A DNA stretch of 30,340 nucleotides from a virus (lineage: Duplodnaviria > Heunggongvirae > Uroviricota > Caudoviricetes), in the IMG/VR virus record IMGVR_UViG_2531839446_000015, one strand, 5' to 3'. Numbering within the stretch: position 1 is the first letter of the stretch; every line of letters begins with the position of its first letter. Position numbers and translations under genes: made by a program. The notes below the pieces were generated by a model. It was not told where the DNA came from. It was given only the letters and a program-made list of their open reading frames with translations, and made no database searches. Below are positions 1 to 30,340 of this stretch, piece by piece.

Positions 1-296
1 CTATTTATCGGAAGGTTTATCCTGCTGCGGTTTGTTGTTGACCATATCGCACAACATAGAGAGCAGCATTAACCGTACTTTAAAGGGAGAATGACTAAAC
101 ACGCGCATACACCTCTTGAACTCATTCATAAGACCTCCTGACTTGCTAATCCCATCGATCCTTGAGGGATGATTGCATTACATACAGATATAGCACAGGC
201 TATATTATAAAGCATCAACTATCTGCGAAAAACAACAACTTACAGTGTTATCAATAAGTTACGTTGGTTAATGTCTGTGAGTATTCGGCAGTATTT

Positions 297-1337
297 CTAA
301 GCTGTCGCGACATTTTTGCGACATTTTAGGGGGTTAAGTCGCACAGCATCTTCAAGGTGGCTTGGGGCGAAGTGGGCATAACGCATTGTCATGGTTATGT
401 CAGCGTGGCCGAGAATTTTTTGCAAAACCAGAATGTTTCCGCCGTTCATCATAAAGTGGCTGGCAAATGTATGGCGCAGTACATGGGTAAGCTGGCCGGA
501 GGGGAGTTCAATGCCTGCGCGTTCCAGAGCAGAGCGGAAAGCGTTGTAGCAGGGCTTGGGGAACAGAGCGCCTTTTGTTTCAGGTAATTCGGACAGAAGT
601 TCATCATCAAGGGGAATTGTTCTGTTGCGCTTCCCTTTGGTTTTGACGAACGTGACTTTACCCCCGGCGATCTGGGAGCTTTTCAGCGTTGCCGCCTCAT
701 TCCACCTTGCGCCGGTAGCAAGGCAGATTTTGACAACTAATTCTAGGTACTTAACTTTGCTTCGTTTGCATTCCAGTAAAAGCCGATCAATTTCTTCGGT
801 AGTGAGGAAAGCCATTTCGGTTTCATCAGTACGATACTGTCTGACGTTTTCCAGTGGGTTGGGTGCTGACCATTCACCAATCCGTTTCAGTTCATTGAAC
901 ATCGCTAGAAAGTAAGCATGTTCAAGGTTCATAGTTTTCGGGGAAACCTTAGATACTCTGTTGGTGCGGGCATAATGCCCATCCAGCCTTTTAGCGCGGT
1001 AGGCTGTGAACAACTGGGCATTAAATTCTGTGGCCAGCGGGAATCCCATGCATTCCGCCGCCCAGGTCATAGCATCTTTACGCTTTTCGCCATTGCTCAA
1101 AGCTACGCCGTGGCGTTCATACCACATTGTTATCAGATCTATTAAAGTTCGCTTGTCCTTCCCTTCACCCAGCCACGGAGCTGCGTCTACTTTCTGAAGC
1201 GTATGGTTTTCGAATGCCAGGGCTTCCCCTTTCGTGGCAAATTTTTTACGTATACGCTTCCCGTTCTTGCCATTACTGCGGTTGACGGTGTAGAAGTCGG
1301 CGATCCATTCGCCTGTAGGAAGTTTACGAACGCTCAT
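297..1337 (-). CDS. int: Tyrosine integrase (P2/186 family site-specific recombinase)
   Basis: 346 aa ORF; C-terminal catalytic signature HVLRHTFASHF ... LGHADITMTMRYAH (His/Arg box and active-site Tyr); lies directly downstream of the repressor gene with 1-nt spacing (cI stop 1339-1341, int ATG 1335-1337), as in 186. Confidence 0.9.
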   Translation of the reverse strand: MSVRKLPTGEWIADFYTVNRSNGKNGKRIRKKFATKGEALAFENHTLQKVDAAPWLGEGKDKRTLIDLITMWYERHGVALSNGEKRKDAMTWAAECMGFPLATEFNAQLFTAYRAKRLDGHYARTNRVSKVSPKTMNLEHAYFLAMFNELKRIGEWSAPNPLENVRQYRTDETEMAFLTTEEIDRLLLECKRSKVKYLELVVKICLATGARWNEAATLKSSQIAGGKVTFVKTKGKRNRTIPLDDELLSELPETKGALFPKPCYNAFRSALERAGIELPSGQLTHVLRHTFASHFMMNGGNILVLQKILGHADITMTMRYAHFAPSHLEDAVRLNPLKCRKNVATA

Positions 1338-3002: not shown

Positions 3003-3431
3003 ATGGCGATTAGCCAGGAACAGCAAAAGCGCGGGCTGGAGCATTTAAAACAGATCCGCCGCAAATACTTCAGCAAAAGCAGCGAGGCCGCTGAATGGTG
3101 GGACAACTTAACACCGGAGTGGCGCGGCGTAGTGCTTCATGCTGCTGCGGTTACATCTGGTACCGGGGCATTTAAAGCCCATTTAAGTAAGTGCTGCTGG
3201 CGGGAGCTTTATGACCGCCTGGGCTATCGGGACATGATTCAACTGCGCCAGGGCATTTCACGGGCGCGGTTAACGTTTGAAGGTTTCGGCAGTTTACGTG
3301 ACAGCGATTTTTCGAAGCGCACCGCGAACCGCTCGATCAAAAAAGTACATCCCATTTATAGCAGTGGCGGGGTGCAGATGGTGATCGCGCCGCATATCGT
3401 CCATAAGTTCCAGCAACAGGGGAATCACTAA
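3003..3431 (+). CDS. Hypothetical early protein (142 aa)
   Basis: ATG at 3003 sits 4 nt after a perfect AGGAGG (2993-2998). The track ORF 2808-3431 is the same frame extended upstream to a GTG with no Shine-Dalgarno. Confidence 0.5.
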   Translation: MAISQEQQKRGLEHLKQIRRKYFSKSSEAAEWWDNLTPEWRGVVLHAAAVTSGTGAFKAHLSKCCWRELYDRLGYRDMIQLRQGISRARLTFEGFGSLRDSDFSKRTANRSIKKVHPIYSSGGVQMVIAPHIVHKFQQQGNH

Positions 3432-13538: not shown

Positions 13539-13775
13539 ATGAAAGAAAGCCATTTACAAGGTGCACATACCCATACCGTGGGGGCACATAGCCATTCTCT
13601 GGGTGGTGCACATACCCATACCGTGGGGGCACATAGCCATTCTCTGGGTGGTGCACATACCCATACCGTGGGGGCACATAGCCATTCTCTGGGTGGTGCA
13701 CATACCCATACCGTGGGTGCACATAGCCATTCTCTGAGTGGTGCACATACGCACACTTTTAATACTGAGCAGTAA
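13539..13775 (+). CDS. His-rich HxH tandem-repeat small protein (78 aa)
   Basis: AAGGA 9 nt upstream of ATG 13539; protein is MKESHLQ + (GAHTHTVGAHSHSLG)x4 + GAHTHTFNTEQ. Sits between the small terminase and head-completion genes, where P2 has no gene. Confidence 0.45.
   Translation: MKESHLQGAHTHTVGAHSHSLGGAHTHTVGAHSHSLGGAHTHTVGAHSHSLGGAHTHTVGAHSHSLSGAHTHTFNTEQ
13561..13758. repeat. Tandem 45-bp direct repeat, about 4.4 copies
   Basis: Unit GTGCACATACCCATACCGTGGGGGCACATAGCCATTCTCTGGGTG starts at 13561, 13606, 13651 and 13696 (fourth copy with 2 substitutions), then a partial copy; the first three copies are identical. Confidence 0.95.
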
Positions 13776-13871
13776 ACGACTACCGCAAGCCAGGCGGACG
13801 CGGTGGAGGGCAGAACACCTTGTGTGTAACTGCGCCGTGGAAACCGGCCAGTCCGCCTTTTCGGGGGATTT

Positions 13872-26165: not shown

Positions 26166-27868
26166 TGATGAAACCAGTAAAACGCCTTTACCTTTCAACG
26201 GATGAAGTTCACCTGGTGGATGCCAGCCTGGTACTGGAGCTGAACAGCTGCGGCCGGGGCTTCATCACCGCAGAGACAACAACCGATTACACCGGAAAAC
26301 TGGTGCGGCTGGATGTAGGGTATACCGATCTGCTTTTGCGCTGGTTTACGGGGTACGTGGAGCGATCGCAGCCCGCAGAAAACGGTTTTCAGCGTCTGTT
26401 CATTCGTGAGCTGGTAGGTGTGTTTGAAAGGATGTGGCCGTGCTCATTTCAACATCCAACTTTACGCGAGGTTGCCAGCTGGCTGGAAGAAAACAGTGGT
26501 ATCTCGGTCAGTGTGCCTGATGCACAGTACAGCGATACCCCCATCCCACATTTTACCCATAACGGTACCGGCTATCAGTTGCTGAACAATCTGGGAAGGG
26601 CGTTCAGTATCCAGGATTACATCTGGTACCAGTTGCCTGATGGTTCGCTTTACGTCGGTGGCGCAGAAAAGTCACTGTTTGCCGGTCGTCCCGTAGAAAT
26701 CCCGTCAGAGTTCAGCCAGGGGGCTGCTGGTGGTAACTCTGTGACATTACCAGTGATCCAGACTATGCGGCCAGGGGTGGAGATGAACGGTGAACGCGTG
26801 ACTAAAGTTCACCTGACTAATGACACGATGGCGATCACATGGACGCCGAGAAACCGCGCAACGGGTAAACCTTTGCAGAAAACACCGGCGCAACGGCAGA
26901 TTGAAAGCCATTACCCGGAACTGGCATCCGGGCTTCATTTGCCAAAGACGGCCAGAGTCGTGGCGCATTCAGAGCCAGTAAAAAGCGGTAACTTTGCCGA
27001 TCCCTTCCGGCCACGTTACGCCGTGGACGTGCAACTGCTTGACGCAGACGGAAACCCGGACAATCAGACGCCTGTTTACTCAGCGGTGCCGCTGCCGGTA
27101 CCAATGGCCGGGAATGATTCAGGTATGTTTCAGTTCCCGCCTGAAGGGACGCTGGTTGAGGTCGCATTCACAGGAGGCAGACCGGATAAACCCTTTATCA
27201 GGCAGACGCTGCCGGATGGCACCAGTCTGCCGGACGTTAAACCCGGTGAGCAATTACAGCAGCAGCGGGAAGAAGTATCCCTGAGGGTGACTCAGGCGGG
27301 TGACTGGGTAAGGCAGACCGATCAGACCATCAGCGAAACATCAATGGTGCGAACCGTAAAAGCCGATACAGAACAGCGCGAACTGGTCAGCCGTGAAACC
27401 ACGGTGAAAGCCACGGATAAAACCACGGTACTGGGAACCGCCACATTGCTGGCCGGAGCCATCCAGCAGGTAAGCGCCGGTGATTATAGCCAGGCGGTGA
27501 AAGGTAACAGGCTGGCCAGTATTGAAGGAAACGAAGAAACGGACATAGCAGGACAGCAGTCCACTAAAGTGGGCGGTGCTGTAGCCGTGGAGGTTGGCGA
27601 AAGTCTGACAGAGAAGATTGCCGCACTGCGTAAATCAGTGGCTGCTGGCGGTCAGCAGGTCATGGGGGCAACTGTCCATATTGGCAGTGAGAGCATCAAC
27701 GCCCTGACCATGATGCTGGATACCATTGATTTACTGGCAGAGCTTGCGCAGCAATGCGCGAACCATTCGCACCCCACCGTTGGAACTCCAACCAATGCCG
27801 CCGCGTTCACACTGACGGCGACGAAAGCCGGGCAGACCCGGAGCAAATACCAGAATATAATTGCCTGA
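26165..27868 (+). CDS. Baseplate hub / central spike protein (gpV/gp5-like OB-fold domain)
   Basis: 567 aa; FQFPPEGTLVEVAFTGGRPDKPFI matches the gpV/gp5 OB-fold consensus (P2 gpV: VGEQVLILAVGGELDTAFVL); C-terminal ANHSHPTVG resembles the His-rich spike apex; about 300 aa of extra N-terminal sequence. Confidence 0.6.
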   Translation: MMKPVKRLYLSTDEVHLVDASLVLELNSCGRGFITAETTTDYTGKLVRLDVGYTDLLLRWFTGYVERSQPAENGFQRLFIRELVGVFERMWPCSFQHPTLREVASWLEENSGISVSVPDAQYSDTPIPHFTHNGTGYQLLNNLGRAFSIQDYIWYQLPDGSLYVGGAEKSLFAGRPVEIPSEFSQGAAGGNSVTLPVIQTMRPGVEMNGERVTKVHLTNDTMAITWTPRNRATGKPLQKTPAQRQIESHYPELASGLHLPKTARVVAHSEPVKSGNFADPFRPRYAVDVQLLDADGNPDNQTPVYSAVPLPVPMAGNDSGMFQFPPEGTLVEVAFTGGRPDKPFIRQTLPDGTSLPDVKPGEQLQQQREEVSLRVTQAGDWVRQTDQTISETSMVRTVKADTEQRELVSRETTVKATDKTTVLGTATLLAGAIQQVSAGDYSQAVKGNRLASIEGNEETDIAGQQSTKVGGAVAVEVGESLTEKIAALRKSVAAGGQQVMGATVHIGSESINALTMMLDTIDLLAELAQQCANHSHPTVGTPTNAAAFTLTATKAGQTRSKYQNIIA

Positions 27869-27880
27869 CCATGATAACAC

Positions 27881-27903
27881 GCCCGCATAATGCGGGCTTT
27901 TTT
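27881..27903 (+). terminator. Rho-independent terminator ending the late/tail operon
   Basis: GCCCGC-ATAAT-GCGGGC hairpin (27881-27897) followed by TTTTTT (27898-27903), 13 nt after the spike gene stop. Confidence 0.8.
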
Positions 27904-28312
27904 ATACCCTTCTCCAGACGCAGCAGAACGCACCCTCAGCACTTTAGGCAACAAATTAACCCAACTCAACACACATAAAAGATCGTGCGCATGGCGCTGC
28001 GTTGGCGCGACGATGCACCGACAAAATAAATCTTTCGCAGACAAAAACGGCGCTACACCGCACCCGCCTGCGGTTTCTGGATCTGGAAAATTTTTCTGTT
28101 TTATTTTTCTACAAAACAGACCGCCAGACCGCGCCGCTGCTGGCGGCTTTGCGGAGAACTGAAACTGAAATGATTGAAAAGGATTTCACTTTTTTTCAGT
28201 GAAAAGGATCTGTGAAGGATCGATGGGAAAATATAACTATCAGAATATAAAAGAGAAATTGAATTTTAGGTGGCGTTTGTGGATCGTTAGTTAAAGGGGG
28301 GGGATATTCTGT

Positions 28313-28344
28313 AAAAAAGCCCGCGACATCAGATGTGGCGCGGG
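28313..28344 (-). terminator. Rho-independent terminator for the minus-strand gene 28384-29100
   Basis: Stem CCCGCG (28320-28325) pairs with CGCGGG (28339-28344); on the minus strand it is followed by a U6 run (plus-strand A-run 28313-28318); 40 nt downstream of the gene stop. Confidence 0.65.
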
Positions 28345-28383
28345 ATGGATAGAAATTTATTCTTATAGAACAACTGAAAAAAA

Positions 28384-29100
28384 TTACTTTAAACTGAGTT
28401 TAAAATTTTTGAATTTACCATACAGGGTATCGCGTACAGAAAAGGAAGGAACCCAATTGAATCCTGTTCGCCATGGGCGAGGACTACCGTGAAAGCATAC
28501 AACTGAAACATCATCAGGAACTTTGCCAGTAGCATAATCTGATGCCAAGTCAGGGTTGTAACCTATCATTTTACGTGTGGCTATATGGCATTTGTAACTA
28601 ACAACAGATCCGGGAATTATATCTTGCCACAATACAGGTTTCATGACGCTACCCAGAAACCCCTGATCACCCCATTTATCTTCTGTTTGGCATTCATGCA
28701 TATTTTTTTCGGGGTCAGTCCAGAACGCATCCCAAACATATTGTTTGATAGACGCAGGAATGAACATAATGGATGAGTTAACCCTGGAAGGGTGGTTAAA
28801 CTCCCGCAGCATAGTGAACTCTTTCGCCGCATCAAAGATTTTGATATCACCAGTTATGACAACATCAACGTCAAAATAAAGCAGATCCTTATCACCTATT
28901 ACCGGATGGTTTGGATTAAAAAGCTCAATCTTAGACCACCAACCTGGAAGGTTGTGCATTAACGGTGCGGTTTCAACACCAGGGATACTTCCAGCATCAG
29001 TTAAGCAAATTGAAGGTATGCCTTTAAATTGGCTATGCAGCCATTGTGCGTGTTTGGGGGTAAATTCTTTACCGCATTTAAGGACGGATACAATCAGCAT
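28384..29100 (-). CDS. Putative glycosyltransferase-like protein (DxD-type motif), AT-rich cargo or flanking gene
   Basis: 238 aa; motif LLYFDVDVVITGD resembles the DxD region of GT-A fold nucleotide-sugar transferases; AT-rich relative to the prophage; own terminator. Functional call is weak. Confidence 0.4.
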   Translation of the reverse strand: MLIVSVLKCGKEFTPKHAQWLHSQFKGIPSICLTDAGSIPGVETAPLMHNLPGWWSKIELFNPNHPVIGDKDLLYFDVDVVITGDIKIFDAAKEFTMLREFNHPSRVNSSIMFIPASIKQYVWDAFWTDPEKNMHECQTEDKWGDQGFLGSVMKPVLWQDIIPGSVVSYKCHIATRKMIGYNPDLASDYATGKVPDDVSVVCFHGSPRPWRTGFNWVPSFSVRDTLYGKFKNFKLSLK

Positions 29101-29281
29101 ATGGGAATCCCATTCTTTAGAGCAATAGTGTGCATTTTTTGAACATCGGCAATACTAAAATAAATAGTCAGGGCATAATTTTCTTAGGTAAGAGTCATGA
29201 TGCCTCATGCCATTCCTTACGTAAAGCTAGGCAGACTCAGCATAATGAGGGGACAAAAAGGGGACGCTGACCACTACAAAC

Positions 29282-29309
29282 AAAAAAGCCACTCCGTCAG
29301 AAGTGGCTT
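29282..29309 (-). terminator. Rho-independent terminator just downstream of the tRNA-like fragment
   Basis: Stem AGCCACT (29288-29294) pairs with AGTGGCT (29303-29309); followed on the minus strand by a U6 run (plus-strand A-run 29282-29287). Confidence 0.6.
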
Positions 29310-29335
29310 AATTATATGATTATAAAGCTAAAATT

Positions 29336-29380
29336 TGGTGGCCCCTTGGACTTGAACCAGCGCCCGGGCGATTATAAGTC
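29336..29380 (-). tRNA. Partial tRNA (3' half, anticodon loop to CCA), tRNA-Ile2/Met(CAU)-like; probable attachment-site remnant
   Basis: Minus-strand sense GACTTATAATCGCCCGGGCGCTGGTTCAAGTCCAAGGGGCCACCA aligns with my recollection of E. coli ileX from the anticodon loop to the 3' end (GACTCATAATCGCTTGGTCGCTGGTTCAAGTCCAGCAGGGGCCACCA), with a few substitutions and a 2-nt gap. Upstream sequence is AT-rich and cannot form an acceptor stem, so it is not an intact tRNA. Confidence 0.5.
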
Positions 29381-29556
29381 TTATGGTGTAACCTTTTGAT
29401 ATTTATATATAAATTTTATTTTTATGTGAATTTTAAGGATCTCTAACCGCTTTATTTTTGGCTAAAAAACCCGCAGTTGTAGCAATGATGCGGGTTGAGT
29501 TAGTCTTTAAAACTGAAATTGATCAGCCATAGCGTTCATAGGTAGCTGCGTATGCA

Positions 29557-29721
29557 TTAACGTTTTTTAGGTGGTGGGGCTACTTGCTGCGTTTGCTGCG
29601 TTTGCCGTGGTGGTTGATAACCATTGTTCTGCTGATTTGGCCTACTTGATGGTTGATATCCCTCATTTATAGGTTGCCAGCCATCATATTTAGTATTGTT
29701 TGCCGGTTTTTCTTCAGCCAT
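29557..29721 (-). CDS. Gln/Pro/Asn-rich micro-protein (54 aa), putative
   Basis: MAEEKPANNTKYDGWQPINEGYQPSSRPNQQNNGYQPPRQTQQTQQVAPPPKKR; its ATG overlaps the stop of the upstream membrane-protein gene (ATGGCTGA). Below the 60-aa track cutoff. Confidence 0.3.
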   Translation of the reverse strand: MAEEKPANNTKYDGWQPINEGYQPSSRPNQQNNGYQPPRQTQQTQQVAPPPKKR

Positions 29722-30340
29722 TTTTTACCTCACTATTGTTGGGAGAATGTAATTTTACCTCAATAAACTCAACACTTTCTATTTCATTAGTCAATATTAT
29801 TATGCCTAATGTATCAGCTAGTTCGTGATCGAAATCGCCATTCTCATCAAGCGCCCAATGTTTCTCAAGATAGATTTGTTCGGGTTCTGGACTATTGGAT
29901 GCAAATGAGTCACTTCCATAAAAACCACCATATTTTTTACCGTTTTTTAGTGTTACCAATACCCAGCAGCGTTGTCTGGTTGAGAAGAAGTAGTCCCAAG
30001 AGCGCCCTATAGGGTGTGGAAGAATATTTTTGACTTTTTCCCAGTTACGAATTTTTAGCAATGCAACAGGTAATAGTACAGGTATTACAATTAAAACTAA
30101 AAAGTAAAAAATGTAATATAAAATAGGGTGTTTCAAAAAAATGTCATTTGTTTCAATTAGATAAATTGGTATTAAAAGAAATGAAAAATTTATGCAACTA
30201 TATGAAACAACGTCAATTAAAACTTTTGATGTATCCAAATCAATTGATGGGTGAAATAGTCTGTAAACTCTCATGCTGATAAATCCGGGCATAATGAACA
30301 GTACAAATAAAAACAATTTCCCCTTCTCTAAAATGTCCAT
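29714..30340 (-). CDS. Membrane protein (three predicted TM helices plus C-terminal soluble domain), AT-rich island gene; 5' end at window edge
   Basis: 208 aa ORF with hydrophobic segments LFLFVLFIMPGFI, CINFSFLLIPIYLI and YYIFYFLVLIVIPVLLPVALL; AT-rich codon usage unlike the prophage. The ATG coincides with the last bases of the window, so the true start may lie beyond it. Confidence 0.5.
   Translation of the reverse strand: MDILEKGKLFLFVLFIMPGFISMRVYRLFHPSIDLDTSKVLIDVVSYSCINFSFLLIPIYLIETNDIFLKHPILYYIFYFLVLIVIPVLLPVALLKIRNWEKVKNILPHPIGRSWDYFFSTRQRCWVLVTLKNGKKYGGFYGSDSFASNSPEPEQIYLEKHWALDENGDFDHELADTLGIIILTNEIESVEFIEVKLHSPNNSEVKNG

Follow-up and report, generated by a model that had tools for sequence, protein, structure and literature searches.

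A tRNA-like fragment near the right end of the analysed window (a 30,340-nt stretch of viral DNA) is, with good confidence, a non-functional relic of half of a 186-type attP, which recombination probably left within the cargo of the one P2/186-like prophage found between mntS and mntR. The relic would comprise the left arm, the terminator and the tRNA-Ile2 3'-half core of a former ileY-type attP; the resident prophage uses another integrase, related to those of the ileY type, and its site is a 15-bp core between mntS and mntR. A tRNA half followed by a terminator is normally read as the boundary of an island. Applied here, that reading would cut one prophage in two, set its right end 3.2 kb from the true one, and deprive the phage of a candidate defence block that it carries (DUF6338, PDC-S64-like). 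Features of the locus are collected in Table 1.

Table 1. Features of the mntS-mntR prophage and of the attP relic, in window coordinates
Feature	Position	Strand	Basis or remark
mntS coding sequence, left chromosomal backbone	1..129	-	aligns to K-12 mntS; window position 1 is in the mntS stop codon
attL core GCTATATTATAAAGC	199..213	+	junction mapping against K-12
Int-side phage arm with TGCGACA-N4-TGCGACA-type doublet at 306-323	214..330	+	doublet overlaps int 3' end; 4/4 prophages at the site
Tyrosine integrase	297..1337	-	Pfam Int_N and Phage_integrase
Last conserved tail/baseplate gene (567 aa) and conserved 90-aa ORF	26165..28162	+	variable cargo begins to the right
Cargo module 1: 238-aa moron gene, P1 PmgQ/HdmD-like family	28384..29100	-	phrog_1962, annotated glycosyltransferase, PHROGs E=4e-81
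GGGGACA-N4-GGGGACG doublet, left arm of relic	29249..29266	+	common to the ESSI2_ev015 attP arm and GF131
Rho-independent terminator	29276..29310	-	homologous to the terminator annotated beside phage 186 attP
Phage-type spacer between CCA and terminator, aattttagctttataatcatataatt	29311..29335	-	segment identities
Degenerate tRNA-Ile2 3' half, former att core	29336..29380	-	alignment to ileY, 186 attP annotation
AT-rich DNA right of homology break	29381..29460		no match to compared att arms or tRNA 5' half, apart from a faint D-arm-like match (see text)
Second terminator-like hairpin and T-run, ends DUF6338 operon	29461..29497	-	fold -13 kcal/mol, z=-3.4
Start of cargo module 2: 54-aa ORF and DUF6338 protein	29558..30340	-	Pfam DUF6338 E=3e-37

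The fragment is a degenerate tRNA-Ile2 3' half

Read on the minus strand from 29380 to 29336, the fragment is GACTTATAATCGCCCGGGCGCTGGTTCAAGTCCAAGGGGCCACCA. It covers the K-12 ileY gene from the anticodon loop to the CCA end with 40/47 identities in the alignment. The anticodon position has changed from CAT to TAT, the variable loop carries three substitutions (CTTGGTC in ileY, CCCGGGC in the fragment), and 2 nt are deleted from the 3' strand of the T-stem. The first-pass annotation, made from the letters alone, had singled out a 45-nt minus-strand stretch running from anticodon loop to CCA, with TAT for CAT and a 2-nt gap in the T-stem, and the alignment bears it out on each of these points. 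Its further proposal, that the 45-mer aligns to tRNA better than chance, also holds. A megablast search with the right end of the window against E. coli genomes (28 Gb) matched annotated tRNA-Ile loci over 115 bp (29279-29393; 88% identity, E=7e-28), and a blastn search against phages matched attP regions with E values down to 3e-34.

No tRNA gene is encoded at this position. ARAGORN found 0 tRNA genes in the window, and Rfam returned no match at gathering score in the window and no tRNA match in 29100-29600 even at E<=10. Weak Rfam matches in the latter interval (L10 leader, Thr leader and others) lay far below the gathering scores, were driven by the terminator, and were discarded. When folded together with its 5' flank, the fragment scored no better than shuffled sequences (z=+0.54), whereas ileY formed a cloverleaf (z=-4.2). 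Neither the cloverleaf of a functional tRNA-Ile2 nor its CAU anticodon with an intact T-stem is thus present, and the suggestion that the AT-rich 5' side cannot complete a cloverleaf is upheld by ARAGORN, Rfam and folding alike. The changes private to the tRNA part fit a loss of function and, judged from the sequence, would destroy tRNA function.

The equivalent of the crossover heptamer of phage 186 lies at 29372-29378 and reads TTATAAG in the window and TTATGAG in both 186 and ileY. The two bases that follow the heptamer (TC) are ileY-like, unlike those of 186 or ESSI2_ev015. Neither the viral contigs nor the 185,579 species-representative genomes searched contain the exact CCCGGGC variable-loop variant, and a donor tRNA with this loop in another host was rejected on that ground. 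A direct-repeat search revealed no further copies of the fragment in the window or in the extended locus, where it is present as a single copy.

Terminator, spacer and left arm match 186-type attP regions

Phages that target the 3' end of a tRNA gene have a version of this end in their own genome, and integration therefore leaves two of them: an intact gene, completed by the phage 3' copy and followed by phage DNA, and the displaced native end, which keeps its native tail. Phages of the ileY type bring both the tRNA 3' end and a terminator, so that the gene is rebuilt upon integration. The sequence that follows the CCA therefore provides a simple test, a native tail indicating a displaced chromosomal end and a phage-type tail indicating the phage's own copy.

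In the record of phage 186 (Eganvirus ev186; U32222), whose target is the 3' end of ileY/ileX, the attP (ca. 20889-21147) is annotated with arm-type Int sites, a 'predicted terminator of lysogenic operon', an IHF site and 'tRNA-Ile truncated'; the record also annotates a segment 'in common with attB ... 3' end of ileY' and the crossover heptamer at 21023-21029. The siting of 186 at ileY/ileX and the long tRNA-derived cores of 186-type integrases are described by Nilsson et al. 2011 (PMC3448106). The layout of the relic on the tail-gene side is that of the 186 attP: arm-type repeats are followed by a terminator on the minus strand (the strand of the int gene), a short spacer, and a truncated tRNA-Ile 3' half ending at the anticodon-loop crossover heptamer. 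The two are only ca. 80% identical overall, and they differ in several respects. The TAT anticodon and the T-stem deletion of the relic are incompatible with the rebuilding of ileY, its heptamer is TTATAAG instead of TTATGAG, and its core is not identical to ileY. The int-side arm of the 186 attP, with its IHF and Apl sites, and the cognate int are missing at the relic, where unrelated cargo is found instead. Thus, a tail-gene-side arm with homologous terminator and spacer is present, while the ileY-identical core, the int-side arm and the cognate integrase are absent.

A rho-independent terminator had been noticed shortly after the CCA, and it was readily confirmed. It starts 26 nt past the CCA, and a terminator scan places its hairpin at 29309 to 29286 on the minus strand, with a 10-bp stem and a T-run. 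The fold has an energy of -17.2 kcal/mol (z=-5.4), and none of 200 shuffled sequences folded as well. It is identical to the terminator of ESSI2_ev015 at 26/29 positions (23-26/29 for phage arms), and it probably still keeps minus-strand transcripts from running on into the 238-aa gene. The window sequence past the CCA is aattttagctttataatcatataattaagccact..., after which the terminator begins. The spacer is identical at 25/25 positions to that of the 675SK2 prophage/ileY junction and at 24/25 to that of ESSI2_ev015, versus 11/25 for the native sequence downstream of K-12 ileY; the latter (aatcattatttacg...) is absent after the window fragment. In the left arm, the segment with the GGGGACA doublet matches the ESSI2_ev015 attP arm at 20/22 positions. 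By analogy with the 186 annotation, we infer that this doublet is a candidate for the arm-type sites of a former ileY-type integrase.

The closest sequenced relative of the window's prophage is ESSI2_ev015 (Quadragintavirus), whose tail genes are ca. 96% identical to those of the window. Over 135 nt that take in the GGGGACA doublet, terminator and spacer, its attP is 91% identical to the relic, and it lies at the same position, after the tail genes and one cargo gene. The tRNA half of ESSI2_ev015 is intact and only ca. 75 bp from its own integrase, whereas the degenerate tRNA part of the window is identical to it at 39/47 positions, and the nearest integrase gene, in the circular form, lies 3.2 kb away, beyond the cargo and behind another att site. 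Homology to ESSI2_ev015 breaks off within 1-2 nt of the heptamer at which 186 crosses over, and to the right of 29380 the identity drops to ca. 40%, which amounts to no homology. DNA of different ancestry had been proposed for the 5' side of the fragment, and this break in homology agrees with it.

Integrated relatives indicate to which side the fragment belongs. At the prophage/ileY junctions of E. coli 675SK2 and GF131, an identical or near-identical spacer and terminator follow the tRNA 3' end. In both strains, an intact tRNA-Ile is annotated, which consists of the host 5' half and the half brought by the phage; the window fragment, in contrast, has no 5' half and lies in the mntS-mntR locus. 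GF131, with one ileY-integrated prophage, displays both copies: a phage-type tail and the GGGGACA doublet mark the cargo-side copy, and the one at the int-side junction is the displaced copy with the native tail. Since the tail in the window is phage-type, as in the cargo-side copy of GF131, we conclude that the fragment is a phage-borne half and belongs with the DNA to its left, on the terminator side. The first-pass annotation had taken the fragment for the signature of a tRNA-targeting island or phage att site, with the island to the right. As the att site of a phage targeting tRNA-Ile2, the interpretation stands; as the edge of a second island it fails, given the phage-type tail, and the orientation has to be reversed.

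A single pair of att cores encloses the prophage, the relic and the AT-rich block

The window holds a P2/186-like prophage of the ESSI-2 group (relatives of Quadragintavirus), with genes for an integrase, CI repressor, gpA, portal, terminase and tail proteins. K-12 sequence stops at window position 213 and resumes, with a 15-bp overlap, at position 24393 of the corresponding locus of E. coli Combat13F7 (L001). The second core thus lies outside the window, beside mntR, at window-equivalent 32542-32556 (L001 24393-24407). The 15-bp direct repeat GCTATATTATA[A/T]AGC bounds an insert of ca. 32.3 kb and matches the single copy of the empty K-12 site, which reads GCTATATTATATAGC; the right, mntR-side copy is also GCTATATTATATAGC. 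From the sequence, a single att pair encloses everything from window position 199 to window-equivalent ca. 32556, the fragment and the AT-rich block included. The locus is therefore not made up of two adjacent mobile elements, as had been envisaged.

To the right of the fragment, the K-12 backbone resumes at mntR after 3,161 bp. An intact tRNA beyond the supposed island had been predicted, but no tRNA was detected there by ARAGORN, and neither an intact tRNA nor a repeat of the 45-mer was present in the ca. 20 kb examined beyond the window; beyond the mntR junction, gene order follows that of K-12. ARAGORN found no tRNA in 42 kb of the near-identical Combat13F7 locus or in the six loci L010-L015, and none of the 10 related loci examined contains one.

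The resident integrase is 62% identical to the Int of phage 186 and 57% identical to that of ESSI2_ev015 (BLASTP), and it adjoins mntS in 29 complete E. coli genomes. The prophages of strains 1919D3, SC434 and 573 have the same core at both ends and contain no tRNA-like fragment. The genes between tail and mntR differ among them: a serine acetyltransferase is found in 1919D3, DUF6338 with two small genes in SC434, and an AIPR-family protein in strain 573. TGCGACA doublets are located 66-78 bp inside the mntR-side core and ca. 108 bp inside the mntS-side core in all four mntS-mntR prophages. The DNA just inside the mntR-side core differs from one of these prophages to another, with the doublet kept. 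By the same analogy to 186, the TGCGACA doublets are candidate arm-type Int sites. The doublets of the relic are of the GGGGACA type, as in ESSI2_ev015 and GF131, and those of the resident integrase are of the TGCGACA type.

A joined attP form, in which arm-like sequence, GCTATATTATAAAGC, the int-side arm and int are contiguous, was found in a 29.6-kb IMG/VR viral contig (L017), which is a relative with different cargo and not the exact lineage studied here. For the prophage of the window, the predicted attP would join window-equivalent ca. 32541 to window 199-214, giving ...ATCAATAAAAGCTATATTATAAAGCATCAAC.... A search of the phage collection for the lineage-exact attP returned only integrase matches at 75-79%, and a degenerate junction pattern retrieved one viral contig, a relative, and nothing in metagenome contigs. 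Nothing specific on mntS-mntR prophages or on att relics in P2-like phages was found in the literature.

The relic separates two cargo modules

From ca. 28000 onward, the GC content is 0.39-0.42, versus ca. 0.52-0.56 in the body of the prophage. Homology to ESSI2-type phages ends at ca. 28056-28290, and relatives have different cargo past this point. The relic separates cargo module 1, on its left, from module 2, on its right. Homologues of the 238-aa gene of module 1 were found by tblastn in many types of phages (P1-like, lambdoid and others), but the gene was not found beside an ileY-type attP in sequenced phages.

Module 2 is a five-gene block with its own terminator and no integrase. Beyond the window it continues with a gene for a 341-aa PDC-S64-like protein and 186-aa and 89-aa ORFs, after which the phage arm, the attR core and mntR follow. 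The 341-aa protein (L001 22213-23238, window-equivalent 30362-31387) matches the candidate defence family PDC-S64 (PADLOC, E=2.5e-47); the products of the 54-, 186- and 89-aa genes match nothing. The partners of DUF6338 vary by lineage, being the 341-, 186- and 89-aa proteins here and 85- and 165-aa proteins in SC434 and GF131. A closely similar DUF6338 module adjoins ileY in GF131 and mntR in SC434, which indicates that such cargo moves between phages of the two att types.

The slot between tail genes and att site accommodates a serine acetyltransferase gene both in 1919D3, at the mntR site (L007 8308-9012), and in ESSI2_ev015, with its ileY-type attP (L006 1263-1889). In strain 573 the slot is occupied by the gene of the AIPR-family protein (L009 25202-26938). 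These comparisons are further evidence that the tail-att slot is an exchange hotspot common to the att types. Variable cargo and defence hotspots near P2-like att sites are described by Rousset et al. 2022 (PMC9122126) and in a 2026 NAR study (PMC13586616). The variable block seen here, from the last tail gene to the att site, is of that kind; its contents (serine acetyltransferase, AIPR protein, DUF6338, PDC-S64-like protein) differ from relative to relative. The relevant passages of the two studies describe gene content and do not mention an old att half-site inside a hotspot.

The DNA immediately to the right of the break resembles little else. The segment 29381-29505 has no match in E. coli genomes outside the same lineage, and no pre-insertion state was found. 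When 29381-29720 was compared with E. coli genomes, matches were limited to the same lineage and to sequences of ca. 73% identity starting at the 54-aa ORF. No ileY-upstream chromosomal DNA was found to the right of the fragment. A faint match to the ileY D-arm (GGTTA.A.CA) occurs in register on the minus strand at 29381-29409. It amounts to 9/16 nt (P ca. 0.002-0.005, for a window chosen after looking) and to 9/29 nt overall (P ca. 0.12-0.23). The right flank was considered as an int-side arm and rejected as such, having no match to the att regions of GF131, ESSI2_ev015 or 186. The 80-125 bp to the right of the break could still be the other arm of the donor attP, in which case the relic would be a whole attP that lacks only its int.

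The locus is conserved in related E. coli assemblies

Positions 28150-30340 of the window are 100% identical to the Combat13F7 chromosome, and the left 3 kb is near-identical. The prophage of Combat13F7 has a 23-kb internal deletion, which joins window position 3163 to 26322 (L001 18140-18173). The same loss is found in at least two other assemblies (L010 and L013), and it removes the replication and head genes and most tail genes. What is left in the deleted forms is int, CI, CII, Fil, a tail-gene remnant fused into 579/580 aa, and all of the cargo region, relic included; they represent a grounded prophage that has retained its cargo. A full-length prophage is present in four of the six further assemblies.

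Gene order is the same in 7/7 loci: the tail genes are followed by the 238-aa gene, the fragment, the 54-aa ORF, the DUF6338 gene and the genes for the 341-aa and the 186- and 89-aa products, and past the cargo by mntR, ybiR, ldtB and onward in K-12 order. The distance from the fragment to the mntR junction is always 3,161 bp in Combat13F7 and the six assemblies, with mntR itself 3.3 kb to the right; these relic-carrying assemblies may be clonally related and do not count as independent evidence.

Origin of the relic

Related phages have most likely swapped integration module and cargo here, and the fragment would be the record of it. The most probable origin would be recombination of an ileY-type phage with a relative of the mntS/mntR type. 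The ileY-type parent would have contributed the tail genes and the 238-aa gene, together with the terminator and the part of the tRNA half that reaches to the crossover point, and the mntS/mntR-type parent would have given the DUF6338 cargo block together with its own attP and integrase. In the simplest history, one non-homologous join at or near the old core would be combined with homologous exchange elsewhere in the ca. 95%-identical backbones, and the old int-side arm and integrase would thereby be replaced by the cargo, attP and integrase of the other phage. The relic left behind is presumably inactive, having no partner arm, cognate integrase or matching core. This recombination history is inferred from its end states, because no parental phages were found; in particular, no mntS-type phage with the exact five-gene block but no relic was found.

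Several other explanations were weighed against this one. A chance resemblance to a tRNA, to which nothing but the short length of the fragment lends itself, can be dismissed, as the matches (E from 7e-28 to 3e-34) extend over 100-135 nt and include non-tRNA flanks that match phage att arms. That the fragment is a displaced native tRNA-Ile2 3' end with its native terminator, forming the left junction of a second island that extends right to an intact tRNA, is extremely improbable. Such an origin would be in keeping with the resemblance to ileX/ileY, the terminator that follows, and the AT-rich right-hand DNA of different ancestry. Yet the tail past the CCA is phage-type and not native, mntS-mntR is no tRNA locus, the backbone returns 3.16 kb to the right with neither a tRNA nor a repeat of the 45-mer at the far end, and the right block contains no integrase. 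We also regard as improbable an arrangement of tandem elements, in which a prophage from 199 to 29378 would be followed by a 3.2-kb element or satellite without an integrase (29379 to the mntR-side core), each mobilisable by the prophage integrase, with the fragment as a hybrid att site. The heptamer region of the relic, ATTATAA, shares 7 nt with the mntS-type core GCTATATTATAAAGC, and the right block is distinct in composition, ends in a terminator of its own and includes a candidate defence gene. Against this, the right flank lacks a TGCGACA doublet and resembles neither the bacterial side of the core nor the int-side arm that is conserved (ATCAACTATCT...), the GGGGACA-type left arm points to a different integrase, and sister prophages hold the same kind of cargo inside one att pair.

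Another source of the relic might be an integrated ileY junction (phage arm, core and host tRNA 5' part) captured by imprecise excision or rearrangement, the 5' part having been overwritten later. The D-arm match, the extension of the megablast match to 29393, and the ileY-like TC after the heptamer, which is unlike that of 186 and ESSI2_ev015, are consistent with such a capture. We consider it unlikely, however. The D-arm match is confined to a 16-nt window picked post hoc, and the full 29-nt 5' part is no better than 9/29; no chromosomal DNA from upstream of ileY follows the fragment; and a single shared decay does not explain a 3' half that is ca. 85% conserved beside a putative 5' part that is ca. 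31% conserved. The break at the heptamer and the G-to-A change in it raise the possibility, which we view with considerable doubt, that the junction goes back to integrase action at a secondary site. An ileY-type phage could, for example, have integrated in the cargo of a resident mntS-type prophage, with homologous recombination resolving the product. If so, off-target site-specific recombination would be one means by which P2-like phages trade integration modules and assemble the cargo and defence hotspots next to their att sites, and the half-att scars left behind could be searched for systematically.

The mosaicism of P2-like phages, the tRNA-derived cores of 186-type integrases and the integration of 186 at ileY/ileX are established (PMC3448106). 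Because this mosaicism is well established, the locus adds an example and no new principle: the relic represents, in degenerate form, an element already known, and what it chiefly offers is the correct boundaries of the prophage. As an example, it would be a clear and datable one of two sister lineages of 186-like phages trading integration modules and cargo.

Other features of the mntS-mntR prophages

At window 196-213 (K-12 NC_000913.3 853064-853081), the attB core GCTATATTATATAGC starts 3 bp upstream of the annotated 5' end of the rybA/mntS transcript and overlaps an ATATAGC-N4-GCTATAT palindrome. Integration therefore swaps everything upstream of about -17 in the mntS promoter for phage DNA; it also moves mntS and mntR 32 kb apart. 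The manganese-responsive control of mntS may be altered in lysogens.

In SC434 and its relatives, a 193-aa hypothetical gene (L008 1706-2287) is situated between the mntS-side core and the integrase, i.e., as att-int cargo, which is an uncommon hotspot in P2-like phages according to the 2026 NAR study (PMC13586616). The 186- and 89-aa ORFs of Combat13F7 and L010 (L001 23313-24209) correspond to a single 298-aa gene in L011, L012, L014 and L015 (7984-8880), and a frameshift in one of them probably accounts for the two forms. A perfect 45-nt tandem repeat, with three near-identical copies and a degenerate fourth, occupies 13560-13784 of the window. It is in frame within a 78-aa ORF (13539-13775), located between the genes for the terminase small subunit and head completion, and encodes the His-rich sequence GAHTHTVGAHSHSLG.
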